From an uncultured Candidatus Saccharibacteria bacterium (GTDB lineage: Bacteria > Patescibacteriota > Saccharimonadia > Saccharimonadales > UBA7683), in NCBI GenBank assembly GCA_964632215.1, contig CAZWBG010000001.1, positions 241,776 through 305,775 on the forward strand: 64,000 bases of DNA, read 5' to 3'. How positions within the stretch are numbered: position 1 is the stretch's first letter; the number at the start of each line of letters is the position of its first letter. Position numbers and translations under genes: made by a program. Below are positions 7,691 through 21,400 of the stretch, in pieces. The notes beneath the pieces are model-generated. The model was not told the origin of the DNA. It saw nothing but the letters and a program-made list of their open reading frames with translations, and ran no database searches.

Positions 7691-8083
7691 TCATAGTGCT
7701 CCCAGATCTTTTAAAGCTTTTTTAAACTGTCGCAAAGAGCGTTTGGTATCAGGTATGTTCAGTGTAGTGCCGGGTTCATGCACCGCACGGTTACGTAGTT
7801 TATGGGCAGCCCATGTACCATTAATGTCTCGCAAAAGTCCGCGAGAATTATTTAAGCGTTCGCCCATCGTGTCGCCCTTAATACCAGCTCGTTTGAGTGC
7901 TTCATCTACCAAGCTATCAGCATGCACCAAAGCAGCCATCGGATTCGATTCCTTTTCTATCTTATCCCAATGCTTAATAAAGTAAGTTTTGTTAAGACGT
8001 GGCTTCTGTAGGCGCGAGACGAGGAAGATCATTACCAATAAAAAAGCTGCTATGGCCAAGAGTACTAATAGGCTTGTATTCAT
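7691..8083 (-). CDS. Hypothetical membrane-anchored protein inserted between gatA and gatB
   Basis: 130 aa with an N-terminal TM helix. Its start overlaps the gatA stop by 4 bp. No recognisable family; an Rx4H-like RNRAVHEP motif was noted. Confidence 0.45.
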   Translation of the reverse strand: MNTSLLVLLAIAAFLLVMIFLVSRLQKPRLNKTYFIKHWDKIEKESNPMAALVHADSLVDEALKRAGIKGDTMGERLNNSRGLLRDINGTWAAHKLRNRAVHEPGTTLNIPDTKRSLRQFKKALKDLGAL

Positions 8084-9531
8084 GCAACCAATCCTTCGTA
8101 TGCGCGAGAAACTTCCAGTAGAGCACGGTCCCTATGTTGTGGCGCCATCAGCTGCAGGCCAACTGGCATGCCTTCGCTCGTACCACATGGCACGCTTATA
8201 GCTGGGATACCAACTAGACTTGCCGCAACAGTCATGATGTCAGTCAAGTAAATGGAGAGCGGGTCGCTGTGGGCACCAAGTTCAAAAGCAGTCTCTGGAG
8301 CCGTTGGTCCTGCCAGAAAATCAACTTGTTTGAAAGCCGTCTTAAACTCTTCAATTAATTTTGTACGAACAGTTTGGGCTTTTTTGTAATAGGCGTCGTA
8401 GTAGCCGCTAGAAAGTACATAGGTACCTATCATAATGCGCCGCTTGGCTTCTTGACCAAAACCTTGATCACGACTAAGTTCATAGCTCTCCTCAAGCGTT
8501 GTTGCCTCTTCGGCCGTAAAGCCAAATCGCTGTCCGTCGTAGCGAGCTAAATTGCTACTCACCTCAGCCGGACAAATAATATAATAGACAGCAAGTGCGA
8601 GTGGCAGACTTGGTAAACTAATATCGATAAGTTCAGCTCCAGCAGCTTCCATAGCTCCTAAACCTTTCTGGATCTTGCTCTTCACATCATCATCTAAACC
8701 TTCTTCAAAATACTCTTTAATCACCCCGATCTTTTTGCCCTTTAGATCTTCCGATTGACTCGGTAGCAAGTAACCAGCAGTATCTCGAGGGATGGTAGTT
8801 GAATCAAGAGGATCTTGCCCAGCAATAATATCGAGTATCACAGCTGCATCTCTGACAGTTTGGGTGAGCGGACCAACAACATCAGTACTACTTGCCATAG
8901 CAACCACACCACTCCTACTAACGAGTCCGTAGGTAGGTTTCAGACCTACCACACCACAAAAGCTAGCAGGTAGCCGAATTGAACCACCAGTATCAGTACC
9001 GAGCGCAAATGGTGCTAAACTCAGAGCCACTGCCGCAGCGGACCCACCACTACTACCACCAGGTACTTTGGTGATATCGTGTGGGTTTTTGGTTGTAAAA
9101 AAATCACTATTTTCAGTACTCGAACCGTGCGCAAAAGCATCAAGATTAGCCTTAGCCACACAAATTGCACCTTCAGCTTCCAGTTTCTCAATCACCGTTG
9201 CCTGATAAGGAGCTTCAAATCCCTTTAAGATATTGCTCGCCGCAGTTGTCTCGGCACCAAAGACTAAAAAGTTATCTTTCGCAATAAAAGGTATTCCAGC
9301 TAATCGGCCAACTTGTTCACCTTTCGCAACTCGTTCATCAACTTCTTTTGCCTGCATTCGAGCTTGCTCCCCAAGCGTTACAATAACTGACTGGAACTCT
9401 TTATGCTCCTCGATGTGCTCTAATGATTTCTCAACAAGTTGCGTGCTTGTATAGGTGCCGTCTTGTACTTTTGATGCAAGAACCTCAAGAGGTTCCCAAA
9501 ATAGCGTGCCGTCTTCTTGGTGATGACTCAT
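8080..9531 (-). CDS. gatA: Glutamyl-tRNA(Gln) amidotransferase subunit A (amidase family)
   Basis: Amidase signature GGSSGGSAAAVA, 483 aa. Confidence 0.9.
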   Translation of the reverse strand: MSHHQEDGTLFWEPLEVLASKVQDGTYTSTQLVEKSLEHIEEHKEFQSVIVTLGEQARMQAKEVDERVAKGEQVGRLAGIPFIAKDNFLVFGAETTAASNILKGFEAPYQATVIEKLEAEGAICVAKANLDAFAHGSSTENSDFFTTKNPHDITKVPGGSSGGSAAAVALSLAPFALGTDTGGSIRLPASFCGVVGLKPTYGLVSRSGVVAMASSTDVVGPLTQTVRDAAVILDIIAGQDPLDSTTIPRDTAGYLLPSQSEDLKGKKIGVIKEYFEEGLDDDVKSKIQKGLGAMEAAGAELIDISLPSLPLALAVYYIICPAEVSSNLARYDGQRFGFTAEEATTLEESYELSRDQGFGQEAKRRIMIGTYVLSSGYYDAYYKKAQTVRTKLIEEFKTAFKQVDFLAGPTAPETAFELGAHSDPLSIYLTDIMTVAASLVGIPAISVPCGTSEGMPVGLQLMAPQHRDRALLEVSRAYEGLVA

Positions 9532-9830
9532 GAGATCATCCTCTGCACCTTAATATGACCATCTTGTACTTTCGGAACGTTCTTCAAAAGCTCCTCACCA
9601 CTGCGTTGCTGAGTTACTTCGTCTTTGCGAGTTGCATTAGCATCGTTACTCGTAAGACCTGTCACTTGGTAAGTTGGCTTTAATCCCGCGGTATCAACAC
9701 CATCAAGTTGCTTTACATACTCTAAAATATCCCCAAGTTCTTCTTGGTACTGAACAACCTCTTCATCACTTAGATGGAGCCGACTCAAACGAGCCAATTT
9801 TAATATTTCTTCTTTCGAAAGCTTAATCAT
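9528..9830 (-). CDS. gatC: Asp/Glu-tRNA amidotransferase subunit C
   Basis: ~100 aa. MIKLSKEEILKLARLSRLHLSDEE matches the GatC N-terminus. The 4-bp overlap with gatA indicates translational coupling. Confidence 0.8.
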   Translation of the reverse strand: MIKLSKEEILKLARLSRLHLSDEEVVQYQEELGDILEYVKQLDGVDTAGLKPTYQVTGLTSNDANATRKDEVTQQRSGEELLKNVPKVQDGHIKVQRMIS

Positions 9831-9975
9831 ATAATTGACCATTATATCACCATTCTACAGATGTGTAACCTTGACAAAGTATTATTTTAGTACAATAATT
9901 TAGATTAAATTTTCGGGTATTCGCTGAAGGTTCGCTCTTTTACTCGCTAGCAAAACAGAAAGGCTCGTACAACCA

Positions 9976-10372: not shown

Positions 10373-10498
10373 TACCAACTTTCTGTTTTGCTACTTTACC
10401 AAAGCCCTGAATTATTCAGTCTTTTGGCAAAGTAAGTCAAGTTTTGCAAAAATCTACAAAAGAGCTTATGATAATTCATATAACTTTTGGAGACAAAA

Positions 10499-11563
10499 AT
10501 GACATTGCTCGAGGGAATTCAGAGTTTAACCTCATTTGGTGAGAAAGCACCAGAGAGGAAGAGACTCCTAACCCCTGAATACCGTGCTCAGCTGCAAAGA
10601 GAGTCTGAGATCATTTGGATGGATGAGTTAGAGACCACAACTACACCTCACGGCGAGATTACACGGTTCGGCTTTGTTACCGAAAATGGCCATTCCTACG
10701 CTGCGCTCGTGACTAAACCTTTCGAACAACTCACAGACGTACCCGTACTGAGCACCACGCCATGGATTGCCAGTACAGAAGGTCACACCGAGCACATTGA
10801 AAGACACCTGCTTCAGATAGGCGCACCAGGCATATTAGTAGGTGCCGAGGGAAGCCTTCGCCCACCAAAAGAATATACGAAGGATAATCCTCGGCCTACA
10901 CTTGCAGCCTCAGCAGCGGCTATGTACCAATTCACAAATATAATAAAGCCACTGATGCCACACTTATCAGCTGAGTCCGTAACAGTCTTTGGCGAATCGC
11001 GAGCCGCCATGATTGGGCTTGGCCTAGTAGCACTTGAGGAAGATTTCAACCAGAAAGTACTCTACGCCGATTTAGTAGCGCCTTGCTTTCCGCGCGGATT
11101 AGAACCAGTAGACCTGCTTGAAATCCCTAAGCAGCTCGCCCGAGAGCCACTTTCACTCTTTAAACTTATCGGCCGAGTGAGCCAACGAGCAATTCTACAC
11201 TATCCTTCGACCATAGACCCACACCCCATGGCGATTAAGCAACAGATTCGGACTATACCAGCTTTGCTTGGTGCAGAGGCTGGTGATCTAGCTCGTGAGA
11301 TCACCAGTAGCACACCAATTCATATCACTTGTTTTAACGGTGATTTTATCTCAATGTGCCAAGAGTGGGAGGCTCTATTCACTCACCATCCAAACGTGCA
11401 AATAACCCCGCTAGACGGCCAGCATCTTACCATTTGCGATCCAGAAACTTTAGATTTCATAAAAGCTCGCTACCTAGCCTTTGCCACAGCATATCAAAGC
11501 AAGCTCCAGCTCAGTAAAACCAGTATTTTTAACCTCGCCCACTGGCACAAAAGAAAACTCTAA
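10499..11563 (+). CDS. Hypothetical protein (possible alpha/beta-fold)
   Basis: ~355 aa with no confident motif. GESRA resembles a degenerate nucleophile elbow. Stop codon overlaps convergently with paralog B. Confidence 0.4.
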   Translation: MTLLEGIQSLTSFGEKAPERKRLLTPEYRAQLQRESEIIWMDELETTTTPHGEITRFGFVTENGHSYAALVTKPFEQLTDVPVLSTTPWIASTEGHTEHIERHLLQIGAPGILVGAEGSLRPPKEYTKDNPRPTLAASAAAMYQFTNIIKPLMPHLSAESVTVFGESRAAMIGLGLVALEEDFNQKVLYADLVAPCFPRGLEPVDLLEIPKQLAREPLSLFKLIGRVSQRAILHYPSTIDPHPMAIKQQIRTIPALLGAEAGDLAREITSSTPIHITCFNGDFISMCQEWEALFTHHPNVQITPLDGQHLTICDPETLDFIKARYLAFATAYQSKLQLSKTSIFNLAHWHKRKL

Positions 11564-12267
11564 CTAGTAGGACTTACTATCCAGGATATGACTTGACTGT
11601 GTAGTCTTTTATATTCTGCTTCTTCAAATTGCATGTTAGCGATACAATACTGGCGACCCTTCATATTTGTACAGAACATACTGTCTTGCATATCACCACA
11701 ATCATGCATCATGAGACAGTTTGTGAGATTTGCTGAACGTGTGGCTCCAAAGCTATTGGAGCAATGTATACTGTCATCAACTCTCAGACAAAATGTGGAT
11801 GTCCCAGTACGTTGGCAGGCAGCCATGAATTCACTATCAAAAATTCCGTCACTATACAGTACGTTCTTTGATCTAGTTATATCTTGTGAATGAAATACGT
11901 TCTCAGACTGCATGATTAAGTCTGATTCGGCGACATTGAGCGAGTTAATCGCAAATTCGGTCGTCGTAAAGTTAATGTGGTCCCACTTAGAAAGTAAGTC
12001 GTTCAAGTCTGCGATTGGCTGCGTAGCATATAGCCCCTCTGAGGCCGTAGCTCCATTGTTTCGAGCATTATCCATCTTGATAAACTTTGTTGGATTGACA
12101 GAAGTAGCCCATGTAATAGACCCGTCTGTGGCATCTTTAACAGGCTGGGGTAGCCTAACGTCGAAAGTGAACTTTTCGACACATTGTTCAAATGTAAGCG
12201 GATTTTGAACCCCAAATATTTGCTTGATGATTTTGTCTAGGATTTTTTTAGCTTCGATATCATTCAT
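11560..12267 (-). CDS. Cys-rich protein, paralog B of a tandem pair (unknown family)
   Basis: 235 aa. Strongly similar to the 12277-12981 product at its N-terminus (EAKKILDKII..NPLT..FDVRLPQ..NPTKFI..DNARN) and C-terminus (HDC.DMQDSMFCTNM.G.QYCIANMQFE), with a diverged middle. Confidence 0.6.
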   Translation of the reverse strand: MNDIEAKKILDKIIKQIFGVQNPLTFEQCVEKFTFDVRLPQPVKDATDGSITWATSVNPTKFIKMDNARNNGATASEGLYATQPIADLNDLLSKWDHINFTTTEFAINSLNVAESDLIMQSENVFHSQDITRSKNVLYSDGIFDSEFMAACQRTGTSTFCLRVDDSIHCSNSFGATRSANLTNCLMMHDCGDMQDSMFCTNMKGRQYCIANMQFEEAEYKRLHSQVISWIVSPTS

Positions 12268-12276
12268 AATATGGCC

Positions 12277-12981
12277 TTAAGACGCTGGTGATAATATCCA
12301 CTGCACTACTTGCAGACGTAGCTTCTCGTACTCCTCTTTCTCGAACTGCATATTAGCAATACAGTACTGCTTACCACGCATGTTAGTACAGAACATACTA
12401 TCTTGCATGTCATAACAGTCATGGATAAAGAAGCTGTTAGTAATCTTGCTACTCCAAGACACCCCAAAGCTATTAGAGCATTCACCGCTATCTTCTATTC
12501 GAATACAGAATGCGTTGTTACCAGAACGCTGTCCTGCAGCAATGAATTCAGAGTCTTCAACCCCATCAGAAAACAATATATTTTTACTTCGGCGTATATC
12601 TTGTGACCTATAAACATTCTCTGAATTATAAATATTATCACATTCTGCAATGTTCAAAGAGTCAATTTGTCTCTCGGTTGTAGTGTAATTAATTTCATTC
12701 CACTGAGCCAAGAGATCCTGCAGTGAGTTGATCTGCTGCTTCTCGCGAAGTCCATCACCTGACCCGTGCTGGTTGCGGGCATTATCAATACGTATAAATT
12801 TCGTTGGATTCGTTGACTGTGCCCACGTAGGACTATTGTCAGTGGTATCAAAAACCTGCTGTGGTAAACGAACGTCAAAAGCAAATTTTTGCATAAACTG
12901 TTCAAGTGTAAGAGGGTTTTGGTAACCACAAACCTGTCCAATTATCTTATCTAGTATCTTCTTTGCTTCAGTAGCGTTCAT
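12277..12981 (-). CDS. Cys-rich protein, paralog A of a tandem pair (unknown family)
   Basis: 234 aa. Same conserved blocks as paralog B. Lies 12 nt downstream of the ATPase gene and 10 nt upstream of paralog B. Confidence 0.6.
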   Translation of the reverse strand: MNATEAKKILDKIIGQVCGYQNPLTLEQFMQKFAFDVRLPQQVFDTTDNSPTWAQSTNPTKFIRIDNARNQHGSGDGLREKQQINSLQDLLAQWNEINYTTTERQIDSLNIAECDNIYNSENVYRSQDIRRSKNILFSDGVEDSEFIAAGQRSGNNAFCIRIEDSGECSNSFGVSWSSKITNSFFIHDCYDMQDSMFCTNMRGKQYCIANMQFEKEEYEKLRLQVVQWILSPAS

Positions 12982-12992
12982 GTGGTACTCCT

Positions 12993-14993
12993 CTATTTCT
13001 TTAATTTCTTTCGACTTGATGACTGGCTAGCAAGTAGGTCCTGCAAATTCATGAACTGCTTCGGTGCGTCAGCAGGTGGTGCTTCTGGTTGGTATCCTAC
13101 ATTCATCGGTGACATAGCAGTGGCTGATTGCGCCTGAGCTATTTCGAGCTCTTTTTGTCGCTCGATAAACTTCTGTGGCAGCTCTTGCTGTTGATCATAT
13201 GTCTTTAGTTTCACGCCTGTACTAACAACTGGTGCAGCCGTTACATCTAGTGTGCGAGCTTTAATACACGGCAGTACTTGCCCATTCGCACTTAACCGTA
13301 GGAAACACTCACGGGGATGCAAAGATGTAAGCATCTGTACGCGCACATCGCTTTGTTTTAAGCCCTTGTCTTTCTCGGCTTCTAAAATCTCCTTCGGTAG
13401 TTCGATCGTTAAGTTACCCTCTAATGAGCGGGCATCCTCTTCAGAAACCTTAAAGACATAGTAGTTCATAACATTGGTAAAGATGGCTGCTTGCAGGTCT
13501 TTTTCAATTTGTCCAAAGTACTGCTGTGTCAAAATGACTGATAGATTAAATTTACGGGCTTCTGCCAAAATTGCCGCAAGAGCTGGATTTTGAATTACCG
13601 AGACCTCATCAATAACCAAAATAACTTTTTGATTAAACGCTCGCGCTTGTGCTAAAAGGAAGATCTGCTGAATTAAAAGCCCTGCTATGGTCTTAACTAC
13701 CTTTTCACCCATGCTTACCTTATTTAATGAGAAAGTGGTGAGGAAATTGCTGTTAATTATCTGTCCAAGCGATGTTGCATTTTGATCATTGCCTGCGAGC
13801 GAAGGCTGCATCTGCATCTCATCTACCAATGAAACGATAGGCGAGATTGCTTCGTTATAATATTTCGTTCTGATTTCATTAAAGTCAGTACCGAAGAAAC
13901 GGACAATGTTAGCAGGCACATATGACGAAACGTGATCAAGTAGCTGATTACGGTACTCTATATCAGTCACGAAGCGCTTCAGGGAATCAAGTGACATCAC
14001 TTGTGCTGTCATAAGCACGTAGAGCGAGAATCGTAAGACTCGCTCTAATTTAGGGTTGTGCTGGTCATTAAGAAGCGATTTGAAGAGTGTGCCCGTAAGT
14101 TCGGTGGCAGCTGAAATATCCGTGCCTGCACCACCAAATAACTCTGCTCCGTCATCCTGGCCCTTAAAATTAATGACCGTGCTGTCTTTAATACCCTTGA
14201 GATCGCCTTCAAGCGATGCATGCGGGTCAATAACAATTACTCGATAGTTCTGCTTAAGCCCTGGTGAATTAGCTAATTTATCAACAAGAAGCGTAATTAG
14301 CTTTGACTTACCACTTCCGCTGGCACCAATAATGAACGAGTGTTTATCAAAATCATAAGACGTAAGTGGTAAATAGTAATTCTTTGGTAAATATGGAAAT
14401 GTATCTACCTCAAAAATTGCGCCCATATCTTCACTCTGCATAATATGTAACGATTTTTGAATATCAAGATATTTACTCACTTTATTGCGCAAATATCTTG
14501 TATTTGTAGCAAAATCTACCTGAAGTAATTGAGCGGGGAAGAGTGGCATCAACTTATTACTTACCGACCACTGATTAGCACTGTCTTTAAAATAAAGTTG
14601 AAGCTTTGTAATTGCTTTATCAGCATTTACTCGACGACACTTTATTACTGCAAAACAAAGTTCTTTGGCTTTTTTAACATGATACTTCTCACGTATGTCC
14701 AATAAATTGGACCCCCCCCTAATCATAACGAGCCTCTCTTTGCTCGCTGTTGATGGCAAGCCAATATCAGACCTCTCCACGGGTCTTAAAACTCCAACTT
14801 CAATATTATTCGACAGTGTACTGATATCTTTACTGCTTAGAATAAAATAGCGAACTGTATTTTCATCAATCTTGACTATAACCTGAAATTCACTGAGTAA
14901 GCCGACGTATTGAGAGAAAACATTATAAAGTCGCTTCCAGTCAGTGTCAGTAATCTGATCAGTCAGTAAAAGGAATTCAAAAGCGTATTTCAT
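12993..14993 (-). CDS. HerA/FtsK/VirB4-clade (DUF87/AAA_10-type) P-loop ATPase with a unique ~220-aa N-terminal domain
   Basis: Walker A ([13 protein letters not shown]) followed by [12 protein letters not shown] (HerA-like DPHGEY-type motif), Walker B ([10 protein letters not shown]), and [18 protein letters not shown] (the TQ motif of HerA/VirB4 ATPases). Confidence 0.6.
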
Positions 14994-15318
14994 GTTTATT
15001 TAGATGACCTAATCTTATATATCATAGAACCTTCTGAAACTAGATTATACCCCAAGAGCAGCTATAAACGCTAATCATTAGATTCAGCCTGTACTACCTG
15101 ATAAGATTACCCGTCAAAAGCACAAATTGGATTGCTAGCTATTTTAGCTAACTATACCAATATACAATACTGCCTGTTGCGCAGTTTGCTTTATTTCATT
15201 ATTTTTGTTCTAATATACTATAGAAGGTGTTGAGCTAAGTTTTAAGCTCCATCTTTGCCCTTCAACAGAGTAGATAACCACAAAGTCCAAACCACCACTC
15301 ATAGAAAGAGTCTTCGAT

Positions 15319-15429
15319 ATGAGAAATCGAATCATTCCTCTTGCAGTGATCACGTTCATCCTATGCTTCTTATACAGGAACCACCGAAAACTGTACCCGA
15401 AAGAGAGTAATTTCAGCTACCCCAATTAG
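15319..15429 (+). CDS. Small hydrophobic peptide (36 aa), not in the ORF track
   Basis: ATG at 15319, MRNRIIPLAVITFILCFLYRNHRKLYPKESNFSYPN, single TM. Confidence 0.3.
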   Translation: MRNRIIPLAVITFILCFLYRNHRKLYPKESNFSYPN

Positions 15430-15447
15430 GAGGTAAGCCTGCCAATC

Positions 15448-15585
15448 TTGATTATAGTCTATACCGTTCTGACGGTACTAGTGATCGTTGTCTGGCCAAT
15501 CTTCCTCTACATCTACGTCACCGAGAAGACCAAGCCTAGGAAACGACCTATGCCAAGTACAGGTCAACTCAAAGACAAGAGGTAA
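15448..15585 (+). CDS. Small hydrophobic peptide (~45 aa, TTG start)
   Basis: AGGAGG at 15428-15433 precedes the TTG at 15448. Translation is LIIVYTVLTVLVIVVWPIFLYIYVTEKTKPRKRP. Its stop abuts the next ATG. Confidence 0.3.
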   Translation: MIIVYTVLTVLVIVVWPIFLYIYVTEKTKPRKRPMPSTGQLKDKR

Positions 15586-15832: not shown

Positions 15833-16044
15833 GTATGCAACGAGATCATGTTTGAAAGTAACCTTCTGACACGGTCGGGGCACAAGTTTGAGCATATAGC
15901 TCATTGCCCCGACCCTAGTGATGATACGAATTTCTACTCTGTTGATACAACCAAAGTTTTCAAACTATTTTTGAAGGTTTTGGCTGTAAAGCCACCACAT
16001 AGAGTTTGTGTTTAACCTCGGTAAGGCTGATACACTTATGTCCA

Positions 16045-17166
16045 ATGACTAAAGTGATGCTTGAGAAACAATTTGGTCCACGTGAGATATTACCTGAGTC
16101 TATGTGGACTGGCCTCACACGCAGCGGTGAAGGTGTAAAAAGCTGGACCTCACCCATGCGGCGAGCTCAGTCTGGTTTTTTATCAAGTAATGCTGGTGTC
16201 TGGTTGCCAAACATAGGTGATTCTGAGGTAGATTTAAAACTACTTCAGACAAAGATCGTACATGGTCCGGAGGGAAGCCTTCTACTCGAAGGCACACAAA
16301 GAGAGCGGGTTATCACCACCCTTTCTGCACTAGCTATTACAGAGACTGGTTGCTGGCAAACAAATGAAGAGAGTAACCAGGCTAGTCTTGCAGAGCTAAC
16401 GGAAATAGACACAGGGCGCAATATTCTGGAAGCGCCAGAGAATCATATGGCGATTAATCAGTGCGGTAACACTCGTTGTCTATATCACAGGCATTACGAT
16501 GCAACACTTGATGTCCCCAGCGGGCGGCGCGAACTTCTGTACCCCAATCTTGACCTCTATCAAAACCACGATGACAGCGTTATTACTGCCTGGGGCAATA
16601 TTTTACCAAGTGTAGATGAAAGCCGAGAAAAGCTGAGAGAATTGCAATTGCAATGCCTACCTTACGCCACAAGAAAAGACGCACTCTTAACACTTGGTGG
16701 TATTTCCCAGCTCAGCCTACTACCCACTACTGGATGTTGGTTTACAAAAAGCTATTATATGACACCAGTTGGCGTGTCTGGCTATGAGCGTTGGCAGTAC
16801 GATGCCTACGGCAGACTCAAGATTCCATCACAAAAGGCACGTGAGGCCAATTATGTTGATTTTGCGATACTTGCACATCGTGCTGTTTGGATAGTACTTG
16901 GGAATAAAGTGCGAGATCCGAAGAAGTGGGTACTCAACCATACCTGTGGCTTCCGACCATGCGCCAACCCAGATCACCTAGAAGAGGTAAGCCCTCAGGC
17001 CAATAACCTGCACGGAAGAATGATGGATATTTCGTGCGACATGATTGATGGAACTATTCCAGTTGATGACGGTATAGCTCGCTTAAAAAAGTACACTCGG
17101 CGCCAAAAAATCAGCCGCCAAACTATCGACACATTCTGGTCAAATAATCTCAAAAGTCCACACTAA
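16045..17166 (+). CDS. Protein with a C-terminal HNH (His-Me finger) endonuclease-like motif
   Basis: NHTCGFRPCANPDHLEEV...ANNLHG matches the HxC..C.NP.HL Zn-binding HNH variant common in phage/mobile HNH nucleases. The N-terminal ~300 aa is unknown. Start is ambiguous (TTG 16006, ATG 16045 or 16057). Confidence 0.5.
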   Translation: MTKVMLEKQFGPREILPESMWTGLTRSGEGVKSWTSPMRRAQSGFLSSNAGVWLPNIGDSEVDLKLLQTKIVHGPEGSLLLEGTQRERVITTLSALAITETGCWQTNEESNQASLAELTEIDTGRNILEAPENHMAINQCGNTRCLYHRHYDATLDVPSGRRELLYPNLDLYQNHDDSVITAWGNILPSVDESREKLRELQLQCLPYATRKDALLTLGGISQLSLLPTTGCWFTKSYYMTPVGVSGYERWQYDAYGRLKIPSQKAREANYVDFAILAHRAVWIVLGNKVRDPKKWVLNHTCGFRPCANPDHLEEVSPQANNLHGRMMDISCDMIDGTIPVDDGIARLKKYTRRQKISRQTIDTFWSNNLKSPH

Positions 17167-17322: not shown

Positions 17323-18648
17323 ATGTCAACCAGGACTGAAACACAGGACCCAATCGCAGATGATTCACAAGCCCTGCTTCAGCTGTTCATACAACAGCCC
17401 GAACAAGGTTCAGTAGATGCAACGGTTCCCGTCCGCTGGTGTACCTCACCAGCGCTGGCTCAGATGCTCGAAGACAAGGGTGCAATTAACCCCTTCCTTT
17501 ACATCACCATTCGACCATACACCCAAGGAACATTCGATGATGCAGATGTAAGAATCTACAAGAGTGACTCAGCGAGGTATCTCGTACCGCTCACCCAAGA
17601 AATGCAGTATGTAAGCTTTAGTCGACCAGGCCACAATGAAGTGGCCGCAACCATCGTATGGAACCAAGAAGGCAAGGGAGTCCATACGCTCCAAGCCATA
17701 TTTGCACGTCGTAAGGATGATGACTGGACAAAGAGCTTTCAGGCCTACAGCGAGAGTACTTTTATGTCAGAGATGAACGTTACATACAAGACAAGATCAA
17801 GGCAATACTCAGGCTGTATACTTGGAGAAGCGAGTGACACAATCAGCGTAGATGTCCCGAGCGATATGTTCGCCAAGGAGCCTCCGCAGTGGGTCAAAGA
17901 CTACACGGGCAAGTTCAGTGATACCAAAGCATTTGACCAATGTCGAATGCGGCGCCGAGTACTGATCTCAATGATTTTTTTGCCACTGTTCTTCTTGATC
18001 GGCTATACGTTCAGGACAGCTCTAATGGTAGTTGGCTCATTCTGGGGTCTGAGGAAGATGCGTTTTGGCAATTTTGTGCATCCGTTTCGGGAACGCGCAG
18101 AAGATGTTATGGCTGATATTCACCGTAGTGATTGGAGAGAGCCATTTTGGTTTATCAAAGCTGATGGAAGCATCAGGTCTCCGATCCGATGGCCCATAAA
18201 CCCGATATCTATAGTACTGCTTGCAACTGGCCTCTGGGTGATTGGTTCAATCCAAACTGGTACAGATGAGAATATGGAGCGTCTACTGGGGTGGAGTTGG
18301 CTGCAGGCATTGAGCGTAAGCGTAGCTATTCACCTTTTGCTGATCGCACTTATAGCGGTTGGTTGTGTTCTGGTCTTGATATTTGGCGCCCTCATGGGAG
18401 TTGTTCCTGCTGAGAACATCTCAGCACGATTGACCACTAGGCGGCAACGCCGAGAGCTAGCCAAAGCAAAGCAACAAGAGTTGGACCAGAAGGAACAACT
18501 CGCTGAGCTCTCAAGACAACTTCGGGGCATGACCTGCACAATGGAATCAAGCAAAGTATCTGTTGATGCTTTGCCGGCAAACAAACGCAGTGTTCGCCTG
18601 AGACTCCAGATGACCAAGCAAAAGGTATGCAAGCCCTATGCTCGGTAA
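17323..18648 (+). CDS. Polytopic membrane protein, hypothetical
   Basis: 441 aa: an N-terminal soluble region, then several TM helices and a C-terminal coiled-coil/basic tail. Locally elevated GC. Confidence 0.45.
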   Translation: MSTRTETQDPIADDSQALLQLFIQQPEQGSVDATVPVRWCTSPALAQMLEDKGAINPFLYITIRPYTQGTFDDADVRIYKSDSARYLVPLTQEMQYVSFSRPGHNEVAATIVWNQEGKGVHTLQAIFARRKDDDWTKSFQAYSESTFMSEMNVTYKTRSRQYSGCILGEASDTISVDVPSDMFAKEPPQWVKDYTGKFSDTKAFDQCRMRRRVLISMIFLPLFFLIGYTFRTALMVVGSFWGLRKMRFGNFVHPFRERAEDVMADIHRSDWREPFWFIKADGSIRSPIRWPINPISIVLLATGLWVIGSIQTGTDENMERLLGWSWLQALSVSVAIHLLLIALIAVGCVLVLIFGALMGVVPAENISARLTTRRQRRELAKAKQQELDQKEQLAELSRQLRGMTCTMESSKVSVDALPANKRSVRLRLQMTKQKVCKPYAR

Positions 18649-18835: not shown

Positions 18836-21400
18836 TTAAACTTTTTTATTCGATACTCGCCTGAATATAAGCCGTGCTACTAGTACCGCCCCGATCAAGC
18901 CGACTACGGCGCTTACACCTGCTACCCACCAGCTTTTCGGCTCTTGATTTTGATCTACGCTATACCCATAGCTCCCTGCTTCAGCAGTTAGCTGGAAAGG
19001 CGTAACGGAAGCAACACTCGTAGTTTGTCCAGGAGTCGATACAATATCTCGGGCCAGTGGTGGTATAAATTCTCCACCCGCGAGGCCATCTCGCATAGCG
19101 TTGCCTGAGTTTACCGAAACCGTCTCTGCCCTATTTGATACGGCATCTGACTCTATTGATTCAGACTTCAATTCGGGTGCTGATTGAACTTCACTGGTAT
19201 CTTCCGCCTGTAAGCTCATTGGCTCATATCCTTCTATACCAGGGGTAGTATCGCAGACATCACCCAATCCATCGCTATCAGCATCACTCTGATCCTCATT
19301 CCAATCTCCGGGACAGTTATCTTCCGTATCACTAACTTGATCGCCATCACTCGTTACCGTTATAGGAAACGTAGCCAGTGCTTGCTTAGACTGAGCGTTT
19401 GTCACACGCAAGGTTACGAGACCTCCGTACTGATACATGTACATATAGTCGCTGGTTGAACTTTCACTACTGATTTCGTATACTCCATCTCCATTCGTGT
19501 CCCATTCATAGAGAATTATACCGCTTGAGTCATACGATCCAGACCCATCAAGAGTAATCTTTTCTCCTATACGCGCATTCATACCTTCACCCGCCCAGGC
19601 GTAGGGAGTATCGTTAGCAAACCCATTCATCTGCGAGATAACTGTACTCAGATTATAGTTTTGTAGCGTCGTTGATTGAACCGTGATACCCCCAGTAGCC
19701 TCCGCTAGATAAGTAGCGTTCGGGTCAGGTTCTGCAACATCAGTCGCAGCCCTCAGGGGTATAATTGCAACAGGATCTATGGCTAACGCTTTTTGAACAA
19801 TCGGACCATAGGTTAGTTTCTGGTCTAGGGCAGTGTCGTCTAGTCGAGTCTTGCCTATAATATACACTAGCTTCTTCACACCTGGTCGCCACTTCAAACC
19901 CATGGCCATATTTAGCGCATCTTTCAGAGCACCAGGCGAAGTGTTGCCATGTGAATCTTGCGATATCGAACGAAGAGCCAAGGTTAGCTGACCCCCATCA
20001 GTTGGAAAGTTTGAAAGTAATTGGATTTTTGATTCAGTCCATCCCACCCTGCCAAGCCAAGTATTGTATTTAATGATTGCGAAGCGTGCTGTATTCGATT
20101 TTTGTGTTATTTTGTAGTGAAGACTACTGATAACGCTAGACTTCGTAGTCGTGTCGTCTTTTTTATATCTATCTGCATCATATGATTCGTTGAATATAAA
20201 TACAACATCGTAATCATTTGCTGTTCGTCCGGGTAATATACCTGTCTTCTGTGTTAACCTTTCGCTCAACACCTTCGCTACCTCTTCATGACCCTTAGGA
20301 TTAAAATGAAACCATTCTGCGGGTATACGATTATTAAAAGTATTCATCCATCTACCAGGATTATTAAAAACCGGATCACTCATATCAGGCTCGTGACCTG
20401 CAAAATGTGCCTTAACTTCATCAAAATAGTAGAAATTTGCCTTACTGCTACTCTGAGTAGGAATCACTGAACGATGCATTTGGTCTCCTAGCTCCCCAAG
20501 TAGCCTGATATCCTTACTTGCTTCATACATACTGAGATTAAGAAAATCATACAGCTTATAATTGTCATCTTTTGCAAGATGAGGGTAACCCAGCAACACG
20601 ACCTTTGCATCACTCCTCAGCTTAGATCTCATCTGAGTAAACACACTCTCTAGATTACTACGAAACACTTTCCCCTCTTCTGTATTAACCCGAGTAATGT
20701 CCTTGGAACCATTCACGCGTTCACTACAGCCACCAACATTCACTACAGCAGGTACCTTGAGAAAGCACTTTGACACAATTTCTGCAAACTTTACGTCATT
20801 TCCACCAAGTGTCATGAGTACTAAATCAAAACTGTTATCTATATGATCTAGCTGTGCTCGAATATATCGCCTACATTCGAACCGAACTATCGTGTCCGTT
20901 TTTTGAATAACATTAATTCTATACCGTTCCTCTTCGGCTTCTCGCGGGTCACAGTAACCTTTAGTAAGCAGTTTTGATTTCAGGGTTTCATCGCTATTCC
21001 CTGATACAGCCCCAATTGAATCTAGGCTAATAGCCTTCTCGAAATCCTGCTCAAAATCATTCTCATACAAAATGTCATTCGTCACCGCACCACTGCAGGC
21101 CCTATTAACTAAAGTTACGGCGTAACCTTGACTTTCAAGAGCTTTCGCGTACTTTTCTCCCCAGTTAGAATGACTCCTGTAACATTGGTCTGGTCCGTAA
21201 TAGTCTGTTCTATTGAACGACTTACGTGCACCATTACCAGCAGTATAAGAGTCACCAAGTAAGAGTATTTTAAGCCTACCCATAGAGGATTGCGCTGATA
21301 CTACTCTTCCTTCAACAGTATAGGCTATGAGTAAACATAATAAGAAAATGATGACCTGAATCGATTTTAACAAAGCTGTACGATGCATCATTTCATTCAA
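18836..21400 (-). CDS. Large cell-surface multidomain protein: SGNH/GDSL hydrolase, PKD-like domain, thrombospondin type-3-like Ca-binding repeats, C-terminal TM anchor
   Basis: Signal peptide. GDSYTAG (SGNH block I) and GGND (block III). A PKD-like LDGSGSYD..YEWDTNGDG segment. DTEDNCPGDWNEDQSDADSDGLGDVCD (TSP3-like). C-terminal hydrophobic anchor plus a basic tail. Confidence 0.6.
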   Translation of the reverse strand: MNEMMHRTALLKSIQVIIFLLCLLIAYTVEGRVVSAQSSMGRLKILLLGDSYTAGNGARKSFNRTDYYGPDQCYRSHSNWGEKYAKALESQGYAVTLVNRACSGAVTNDILYENDFEQDFEKAISLDSIGAVSGNSDETLKSKLLTKGYCDPREAEEERYRINVIQKTDTIVRFECRRYIRAQLDHIDNSFDLVLMTLGGNDVKFAEIVSKCFLKVPAVVNVGGCSERVNGSKDITRVNTEEGKVFRSNLESVFTQMRSKLRSDAKVVLLGYPHLAKDDNYKLYDFLNLSMYEASKDIRLLGELGDQMHRSVIPTQSSSKANFYYFDEVKAHFAGHEPDMSDPVFNNPGRWMNTFNNRIPAEWFHFNPKGHEEVAKVLSERLTQKTGILPGRTANDYDVVFIFNESYDADRYKKDDTTTKSSVISSLHYKITQKSNTARFAIIKYNTWLGRVGWTESKIQLLSNFPTDGGQLTLALRSISQDSHGNTSPGALKDALNMAMGLKWRPGVKKLVYIIGKTRLDDTALDQKLTYGPIVQKALAIDPVAIIPLRAATDVAEPDPNATYLAEATGGITVQSTTLQNYNLSTVISQMNGFANDTPYAWAGEGMNARIGEKITLDGSGSYDSSGIILYEWDTNGDGVYEISSESSTSDYMYMYQYGGLVTLRVTNAQSKQALATFPITVTSDGDQVSDTEDNCPGDWNEDQSDADSDGLGDVCDTTPGIEGYEPMSLQAEDTSEVQSAPELKSESIESDAVSNRAETVSVNSGNAMRDGLAGGEFIPPLARDIVSTPGQTTSVASVTPFQLTAEAGSYGYSVDQNQEPKSWWVAGVSAVVGLIGAVLVARLIFRRVSNKKV

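Follow-up and report, generated by a model that had tools for sequence, protein, structure and literature searches.

A core gene pair of Saccharibacteria joins an FtsK/HerA-type ATPase to a hexad-repeat protein family also found in DPANN archaea

Known members of the FtsK/HerA motor superfamily act as rings together with a dedicated partner, be it NurA, SIR2, DUF4297 or the adaptors of type IV coupling proteins (T4CPs), and HerA-type motors power the SIR2-HerA and DUF4297-HerA defence systems. Here we describe a module in which this well-understood motor class is paired with a protein family missing from current domain libraries. It lies in a 64,000-nucleotide stretch (the window) of contig CAZWBG010000001.1 from an uncultured Candidatus Saccharibacteria bacterium, and consists of a gene for an ATPase followed by two genes, copies A and B, for a partner protein. 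A first-pass annotation, made from the DNA letters and their open reading frames (ORFs), had put the locus forward as a candidate for an undescribed system, perhaps an anti-phage one; our analysis shows a real core module that is no defence system, and we found no description of it in the literature. Bacteria of the candidate phyla radiation (CPR) and the DPANN archaea account for a large part of microbial diversity, and most genes enriched in these lineages are without known function. Against that background the module is sharply defined and easily recognised: two genes, conserved as housekeeping genes are, with both parts also present in Micrarchaeota and relatives.

An operon conserved among housekeeping genes

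The three genes lie on the minus strand and form a tight operon (Table 1), as the first-pass annotation had described, with gaps of 11 nt between the ATPase gene and copy A (12982-12992) and 9 nt between copies A and B (12268-12276) rather than the 12 and 10 nt given there. A GAGGAG Shine-Dalgarno sequence stands 5' of the copy A gene. How far does the pairing reach? Our bacterial sample consists of the best 80 of 391 matching stretches from a scan of one genome per species (loci carry the prefix L), and the ATPase gene lies directly upstream of a partner gene, on the same strand, in 76 of the 76 loci with enough upstream sequence, so that on the proposed check across related genomes the two do co-occur. 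The genes are translationally coupled, with gaps mostly between -4 and +16 nt and a 4-nt overlap in 21 loci. Partner copy number, which the first-pass annotation had proposed to compare, does vary between genomes, from 1 to 4: one copy is usual, with two in six loci, three in two and four in one. The ATPase and the partner are the sole families conserved around the locus.

The surroundings are those of an ordinary chromosome. In about a third of the loci the arrangement is that of the window, with an upstream gene of ~655 amino acids (aa) that is probably uvrB and gatC-gatA-x-gatB downstream; elsewhere the module is flanked by genes for ribosomal proteins and EF-P, by dnaX/dnaB or by rpoBC. 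The immediate neighbours differ between genomes, whereas the position of the module on the chromosome is conserved, and the accessory setting that had been ascribed to it gives way to housekeeping flanks. Nor is the DNA locally GC-richer, as had been thought: GC is 0.38-0.44 at the locus and 0.38-0.49 in 1-kb bins over the window. The ATPases are on average 59.6% and the partners 60.5% identical to those of the window, with a correlation of r = 0.70 over the 74 loci compared. Both proteins are thus conserved at the level of core genes, and the module is vertically inherited in Saccharimonadales. The remainder of the window holds dnaE, recF, gatCAB, uvrB, glycolysis and pentose-phosphate genes, pheST, trxB and transporters. 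Neither a cluster for a type IV secretion system (T4SS) or a pilus nor any tRNA or Rfam match turned up in it, and no integrase, repeats or tRNA were found at the locus. Genes for a T4SS channel or a relaxase are absent from the window, from the conserved neighbours of 82 loci and from the archaeal loci described below.

Homologues of both proteins bear names such as Candidatus Saccharibacteria and Saccharimonadales. The partner family has 945 matches in a 90%-clustered database and 1234 representatives in a profile search at 50% clustering (E below 1e-3), and the 1550 ATPase homologues are named "T4SS DNA-binding domain-containing" or "DUF87". Nearly all of the best 80 of 391 stretches are labelled as metagenome-assembled genomes (MAGs) of Saccharibacteria, Saccharimonadales or Patescibacteria, the others being two Candidatus Nomurabacteria and one Candidatus Limnocylindrales. 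In these three (L011, L018 and L032) the module architecture is near-identical and the proteins are 61-79% identical to those of Saccharibacteria, so that the contigs may be mis-binned or mis-labelled. More distant bacterial partners (L089, L090 and L092, 26-33% identity) directly follow a DUF87 ATPase as well, one of them in a bacterium with neighbouring genes of a free-living type.

This context bears on the proposal that the module provides anti-phage or anti-plasmid defence of the HerA-plus-effector kind. Its appeal lies in the precedent of SIR2-HerA and DUF4297-HerA, in the matches of the ATPase to the PADLOC model mad8 (E 1e-11) and to PADLOC HerA models (best E 7e-7), in an HNH-like ORF and variable genes at the flanks, and in an EndoU toxin-domain gene that follows the partner in one lineage. 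The PADLOC matches, however, cover no more of the ATPase than its generic core or the Walker A region, while partners and neighbours match nothing; other mad genes and a SIR2 or nuclease partner are missing, and no nuclease or known defence gene is linked to the module. The pair is syntenic among housekeeping genes in every informative related locus (76 of 76) and does not sit in defence islands, an absence that the first-pass annotation had itself named as refuting; it shows core-level conservation and vertical inheritance, and plasmid and viral collections gave no match to the partner. We therefore regard a defence function as highly unlikely, and the case counsels caution: a HerA-type ATPase beside a partner of unfamiliar type is not to be called a defence system before its distribution and context have been checked.

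Table 1. Positions of the module's genes, their parts and the upstream region in the window
Feature	Position	Strand	Basis or remark
ATPase gene	12993-14993	minus	ORF, 666 aa
ATPase N-terminal family-specific domain, aa 1-212	14358-14993	minus	no Pfam match; conserved into archaeal homologues
ATPase core, aa 213-590	13224-14357	minus	Walker A, all-alpha insertion, Walker B; invariant alignment columns
ATPase linker and terminal basic motif, aa 591-666	12996-13223	minus	linker variable, apparently disordered; basic motif conserved
Partner copy A gene	12277-12981	minus	ORF, 234 aa
Partner copy A, "first-copy" lineage, slowly evolving	12277-12981	minus	76-83% identity to first copies of the closest genomes; neighbour-joining (NJ) tree
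Copy A hexad-repeat region, aa 104-212	12346-12672	minus	Ser/Cys/Thr periodicity
Partner copy B gene	11560-12267	minus	ORF, 235 aa
Partner copy B, "second-copy" lineage, faster-evolving	11560-12267	minus	63% identity to copy A; NJ tree
Non-coding region 5' of the ATPase gene	14994-15487		494 nt; minus strand without start or end of an ORF of at least 50 aa; presumed promoter region

The motor and its partner family

By its motifs and profile scores the ATPase is a member of the FtsK/HerA/T4CP superfamily of P-loop ATPases. It scores above the Pfam cut-offs for both TrwB_AAD_bind (35.3 bits against 20.5) and DUF87 (33.3 bits against 23.2), and the family alignment shows invariant or near-invariant Walker A residues G223-K229 including S225, Walker B residues D462 and E463, and E478/R480/K481 and Q491/Y492, in agreement with the HerA/DUF87 motif set read from the letters. 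A hexameric ring is presumed here by analogy with the family. Ahead of the core stands a domain of ~210 aa that the first-pass annotation could not place; it has no Pfam match, and a profile of this domain alone finds none in PDB. The protein has no transmembrane segment: the highest Kyte-Doolittle mean over 19 residues, 1.65, falls on the Walker B strand, and the N-terminus is without a hydrophobic segment. At the other end, a linker of variable sequence and of ~40 to more than 150 residues leads to a terminal motif that is kept across Saccharibacteria, and the tail has an isoelectric point (pI) of 9.35.

The core matches PHROG 5156, a family of unknown function (E 1e-18), besides the mad8 model already mentioned (E 1e-11), and there is a weak PHROG match to a terminase family. 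The closest PDB relatives by profile are HerA chains (8wiv, E 5e-8; 8xau and 8ziq) and TrwB, around Walker A only, and a PDB search with the ATPase sequence gave nothing beyond such matches. Among plasmids the nearest relative is a 966-aa ATPase of coupling-protein type on pHT73, whose gene lies in a Tcp-like conjugation locus beside TcpD, TcpE and a gene of a relaxase family.

The two partner copies are 63% identical (E 4e-113), a similarity far above chance, and the block DMQDSMFCTNM.G.QYCIANMQFE is identical in both, so that the first reading of the pair as paralogs stands. Copy B retains every column that is invariant within Saccharibacteria. In the NJ tree copy A groups with first copies, and copy B with second and third copies from the closest genomes (L010, L047, L048, L011, L009 and L018), so that the duplication predates this clade; the remaining partner duplications elsewhere in the tree are independent. 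Both window copies carry the marks of the family, namely an N-terminal head containing LP, an (S/C)-x-x-hydrophobic hexad run and, ahead of a helix, the motif [KR][YF].I[AG]N. Neither copy has a transmembrane segment, and the partner has no signal peptide.

The partners had also been described as Cys-rich, with five or more conserved Cys. Five are indeed common to copies A and B, but only C198 and C207 are near-universal in the bacterial family and archaeal members have C207 replaced, so that richness in Cys is a local trait. A metal-binding Cys cluster was rejected: most Cys swap with Ser, Gly, Val, Leu or Ile in the bacterial family, and archaea have no C207 equivalent. The family's median pI is 5.5, which is mildly acidic; its pI spans 4.6-9.6, which weakens the idea that the partner is a DNA mimic.

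What recurs instead is a hexad. Ser, Cys or Thr stands at every sixth residue about 16 times, with at least 60% conservation at positions 108, 114, 120, 126, 132, 138, 144, 150 and 156 and then at 165, 171, 177, 183, 189 and 195; the autocorrelation reaches 0.69 at a lag of 6 and 0.66 at a lag of 12, where the hydrophobic pattern has its maximum (0.53). Such a periodicity is as expected for a tight beta-solenoid with two hexads per coil and a Ser/Cys ladder. An AlphaFold2 model from 48 diverse sequences (mean predicted local distance difference test, pLDDT, 75; predicted template modelling score 0.81; pLDDT 50-67 in the solenoid half) predicts an alpha/beta head at aa 1-100, very short strands at aa 100-212 and a terminal helix at aa 215-229; an earlier run on a shallow alignment of 20 sequences (pLDDT 55) was set aside.

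The description of the partner as belonging to no recognised family has held. It has no meaningful match in Pfam, NCBIfam, PADLOC or PHROGs, apart from a recurrent weak match to PHROG 15341 (E 0.002-0.05), and the Hexapep, Pentapeptide and bactofilin families of Pfam match neither of the two copies nor any of eight varied relatives, even when E values up to 1 are admitted. A partner profile finds nothing under E 0.5 among PDB sequences, and Foldseek with the model, the comparison that the first-pass annotation had proposed, returns nothing under E 2 in PDB or BFVD. We limit the claim to this: the modelled partner has no detectable structural similarity in PDB or BFVD, which stops short of calling the fold novel.

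Could the module be the domesticated remnant of a virus or other mobile element, with a packaging-type FtsK/HerA ATPase and capsid-like partners? Single and double jelly-roll capsid proteins pair with A32-type ATPases, and the single- and double-domain forms of the partner superficially recall them; the matches of the ATPase to phrog_5156 (E 1e-18) and, weakly, to a terminase family point the same way. Yet the partner has no relative in IMG/VR and no capsid match in BFVD or PDB, its hexad repeats are no jelly-roll signature, the locus is without integrase, repeats or tRNA, and chromosomal synteny is stable. An origin from a virus or a plasmid was rejected on the further ground that neither IMG/VR nor the plasmid collections contain any match to the partner, and we consider the remnant hypothesis extremely unlikely.

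Archaeal relatives and the possible role of the module

Both proteins have homologues in archaea. Many partner representatives are ~525 aa long with two copies of the domain and come from MAGs of Micrarchaeota, Parvarchaeota and Ainarchaeum (DPANN). Bacterial and archaeal partners are homologous with an hhalign probability of 99.95% (E 6e-38), and the ATPases are homologous by BLASTP (E 2e-48) over residues 4-585, with the N-terminal domain included. Of eleven archaeal ATPases, ten have Walker A at residue 211-224, much as in the window protein, and the eleventh has it at 261; none of the eleven has a transmembrane segment, and ten end in long basic tails rich in Lys, Ala and Pro that are similar to those of histone H1.

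A metagenome scan gave 77 archaeal loci, in which the partners form arrays of 2-10 genes that mix double-domain (~530 aa) with single-domain (~255 aa) forms. A 629-kb Micrarchaeia contig (L006/L096) carries ten partner genes that overlap by 4 nt and lead to a convergent ATPase gene. Counting this contig, arrays end at an ATPase in at least nine independent long loci (the others being L111, L115, L119, L124, L141, L146, L147 and L156), and an ATPase also adjoins a partner in L103, L104, L108, L134 and L140. Those arrays in which we saw no ATPase (L099, L132, L164 and L167) reach a contig end or come within ~3 kb of one, and the gene may lie beyond it. Seven of 14 arrays contain genes of ~244 aa for Bat-like regulators, of HTH_10 type by sequence, which suggests that array expression is regulated. 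Such regulator genes stand in or beside arrays L111, L115, L119, L124, L134, L141 and L156, and in L094 a gene with a Pfam HTH_10 match (9239-9940) precedes a solitary partner copy.

What might such a pair do? We tentatively favour a soluble ring translocase that is guided or gated by a solenoid dimer and acts on DNA in the cytoplasm, a reading we consider possible rather than probable. It draws on the strict linkage of the two genes, the precedent of the superfamily, the series of partner forms and the basic tails. When genes are adjacent, translated together and conserved together, their products usually bind one another. Partner genes range from single ones through tandem pairs to fused double domains, which suggests that the working unit has two domains; it would be a homodimer where there is one gene, an A/B heterodimer in the window and a fused pseudo-dimer in archaea. 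Basic ATPase tails in bacteria and archaea hint that nucleic acid is held by the motor, and the lack of transmembrane segments in the three window proteins and in the archaeal ATPases points to the cytoplasm.

On this proposal, the first component would be a soluble, presumably ring-forming translocase of the FtsK/HerA/coupling-protein type, whose N-terminal domain is peculiar to the family and whose basic C-terminal tail is flexible. The second would be a dedicated partner in which an alpha/beta head is followed by ~16 hexad repeats, forming a putative beta-solenoid that bears a Ser/Cys ladder, and then by a C-terminal helix. The partner unit would dock on the ATPase ring, much as NurA, SIR2 and DUF4297 do on HerA or adaptors on T4CPs, and would select or gate the substrate that the motor engages; the motor, tethered to nucleic acid through its basic tail, would then translocate DNA in the cytoplasm.

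Several observations speak against a partner-gated DNA translocase. Solitary archaeal partner copies are scattered among housekeeping genes far from any ATPase, and one partner copy in Dojkabacteria has no adjoining ATPase. A fixed subunit is not usually encoded by arrays of up to ten co-oriented, overlapping paralogs such as those of archaea, which suit a cargo or a structural heteropolymer at least as well. The basic tail could bind acidic membranes, or the mildly acidic partner, instead of nucleic acid. The partner has no recognisable catalytic, effector or DNA-binding domain, and its universally conserved polar residues are few (N210, R161, Q212 and Y218), which together with the interchange of Cys argues against the partner being an enzyme or a metal cluster.

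The array evidence thus brings in two rival explanations. In the first, the ATPase is a T4CP-like receptor that docks on a channel encoded elsewhere, for instance the essential Saccharibacterial T4SS, and the solenoids are exported substrates or adaptors, paralleling Esx and EccC. The tandem arrays do look like those of secretion-system substrates, and the single, paired and fused forms like substrates exported as dimers; the ATPase scores above the Pfam cut-off for TrwB_AAD_bind, its nearest plasmid relatives lie in conjugation loci, and Wang et al. 2023 describe an essential T4SS in Southlakia without recognisable coupling and relaxase proteins (PMC10633639). On the other hand, the ATPase has no transmembrane anchor, and no channel, relaxase or T4SS gene is linked to it in the window, in ~80 bacterial loci or in the archaeal loci. 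The partner lacks a signal peptide and is conserved as much as the motor, unlike typical effectors, and DPANN archaea carry the module too, as does the bacterium with neighbours of a free-living type. The T4CP-like SEML1_0293 of Southlakia, the only such gene in the transposon-sequencing tables, is 921 aa long and non-essential, differs in architecture and has no partner gene adjoining. We consider export of the partners unlikely, if worth keeping in view.

The second rival would have the hexad-repeat proteins self-assemble into a cytoplasmic filament, tube or shell, with paralogs co-assembling and the ATPase assembling, remodelling or loading the structure. Some solenoids do polymerise, for example bactofilins, and the strict periodicity of six and 12 residues is typical of beta-solenoids; arrays of 2-10 translationally coupled paralogs that mix single- and double-domain forms resemble multi-paralog structural clusters, and conservation in the partner is not enzyme-like. 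Set against this, the partner has no similarity to bactofilin or to any polymer-forming family, and we know of no FtsK/HerA-type motor that serves as a filament assembly factor. A structural polymer therefore seems to us distinctly unlikely, even though the archaeal arrays suit it, and suit exported cargo, at least as well as they suit the translocase.

There is also a bolder proposal. The module might be a previously unrecognised cellular machine common to the ultrasmall symbiotic CPR/Saccharibacteria and DPANN/Micrarchaeota, in which the motor would act on, or put together, beta-solenoids of a new class with 12-residue coils, and which moves proteins or DNA, or builds a structure, at the interface between symbiont and host. 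We hold this to be speculative and, as it stands, unlikely. Whichever reading one prefers, the distribution over CPR bacteria and DPANN archaea makes the module worth experimental follow-up, and it is a tractable target, as genetic manipulation of Saccharibacteria is now possible and both proteins are soluble.

Neighbouring genes and described systems

The genes around the module form a varied set. Directly 3' of copy B lies a convergent ORF of 358 aa (10487-11563, plus strand) whose gene end overlaps that of copy B by 4 nt; it has no match in Pfam, NCBIfam or PADLOC, and a homologue of ~380 aa was found in 15 related loci. The HNH-motif protein reported in the first-pass annotation corresponds to a 386-aa ORF (16006-17166, plus strand) with HNH_3 (E 0.002) and His-Me finger (E 0.012) matches, both under the Pfam cut-offs; its assignment is plausible but unproven, and the ORF is not conserved alongside relatives' modules. 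Between uvrB and the module, in a stretch that differs among related genomes, are genes for a multi-pass membrane protein of 441 aa with a charged C-terminal region (17323-18648, plus strand) and for a protein of 854 aa, probably a surface enzyme, that combines GDSL lipase and PKD-like domains with Asp-rich repeats and, at its C-terminus, a hydrophobic anchor (18836-21400, minus strand). On the other side, between gatA and gatB, a 130-aa ORF (7691-8083, minus strand) has an N-terminal hydrophobic segment, a 4-nt overlap with the gatA stop and no Pfam match; an equivalent of ~133 aa occupies the same place in 26 related loci and is thus a conserved insert in the gatCAB operon. In relatives, an EndoU_bacteria toxin-domain gene stands directly 3' of the partner in L001 (10807-11436) and L002 (8701-9330), and in that one Saccharibacteria lineage only. 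Upstream of the ATPase gene, a scan found TATAAT at 15049-15044 and a sigma-70-like site (9/12) at 15245-15217; promoter-like sites in the 494-nt region show no enrichment over shuffled sequences.

How, then, does the module compare with what has been described? By their defining features, the ATPase does not qualify as VirB4, EccC, HerA-NurA or part of a HerA-based defence system. For VirB4 the gap is wide, 13.6 bits against a cut-off of 643 (TIGR00929), and with no T4SS genes in the window the alternative of a VirB4/TraC protein, raised in the first-pass annotation, finds no support. The EccC/EssC proteins of type VII secretion offer a closer parallel in gene layout, an FtsK-superfamily ATPase beside small tandem Esx (WXG100) paralogs in single, paired or arrayed form, which fits dimeric cargo. 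They have three P-loop domains, however, against one in the window ATPase, which also has no transmembrane or FHA domain and scores 13.6 and 16.6 bits with the EccCa and EccCb models (TIGR03924 and TIGR03925) against cut-offs of 509 and 347; and the partner is a beta-rich repeat protein of 235 aa, not a helical hairpin of 100 aa.

The T4CPs, both VirD4/TrwB/TraD and the TcpA-type of Firmicutes, share with the window ATPase a TrwB_AAD_bind match above cut-off and an all-alpha insertion that separates Walker A from Walker B. CedD and TraD are its top NCBIfam matches, yet they reach only 24.7 bits against a cut-off of 600 and 21.4 against 521 (TIGR02759), and SXT_TraD 20.6 against 366. Unlike T4CPs, the ATPase has no N-terminal transmembrane anchor, and unlike T4CPs, CedD and TedD, the module has no linked relaxase, T4SS, Ced or Ted genes and a unique partner that always adjoins. 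A transmembrane domain is likewise missing from some CedD orthologues (PMC11823120), which like TdtA (PMC5365140) are published soluble or peripheral members of the superfamily that act in DNA transfer, a precedent for the translocase reading.

For the partner, the nearest parallels would be of shape. With its small residue at each sixth position and a hydrophobic super-period of 12 residues, its repeat may resemble the tight 12-residue beta-helices with a Cys/Ser ladder, as in the antifreeze protein of Tenebrio molitor, and the hexapeptide and pentapeptide repeat proteins. Its motif is S-x-x-[IV]-[YF]-x and not the [LIV]-[GAED]-x2-[STAV]-x of left-handed beta-helices, with no sequence or fold match to them, and it differs from beta-helix repeat proteins in being cytoplasmic and in having an additional N-terminal domain and a C-terminal helix.

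It is with the complexes of HerA and its partners that the module as a whole bears the best comparison, differences included. The similarity of the ATPase to HerA is limited to the Walker A region, and a HAS-barrel in the N-terminal domain is unproven, given that this domain has no Pfam or PDB match. Where HerA-NurA of archaea, Deinococcus and Thermus has NurA, the neighbouring gene encodes a hexad-repeat protein, which belongs neither with the nucleases nor with SIR2, and the module stands among housekeeping genes rather than in a defence island, with the cognate SIR2, DUF4297 or other mad genes of HerA-based defence and MADS absent beside the ATPase in the PADLOC search. The partner arrays, reaching ten genes in archaea, also set it apart. 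What the module shares with HerA-NurA, SIR2-HerA and DUF4297-HerA is a single-P-loop FtsK/HerA ATPase with an N-terminal domain before the core, a motor gene beside that of one dedicated, probably co-translated partner, and a series of gene structures suggesting that the partner unit is dimeric. It thereby carries the theme of a HerA/FtsK motor plus a dedicated partner to a new partner family.

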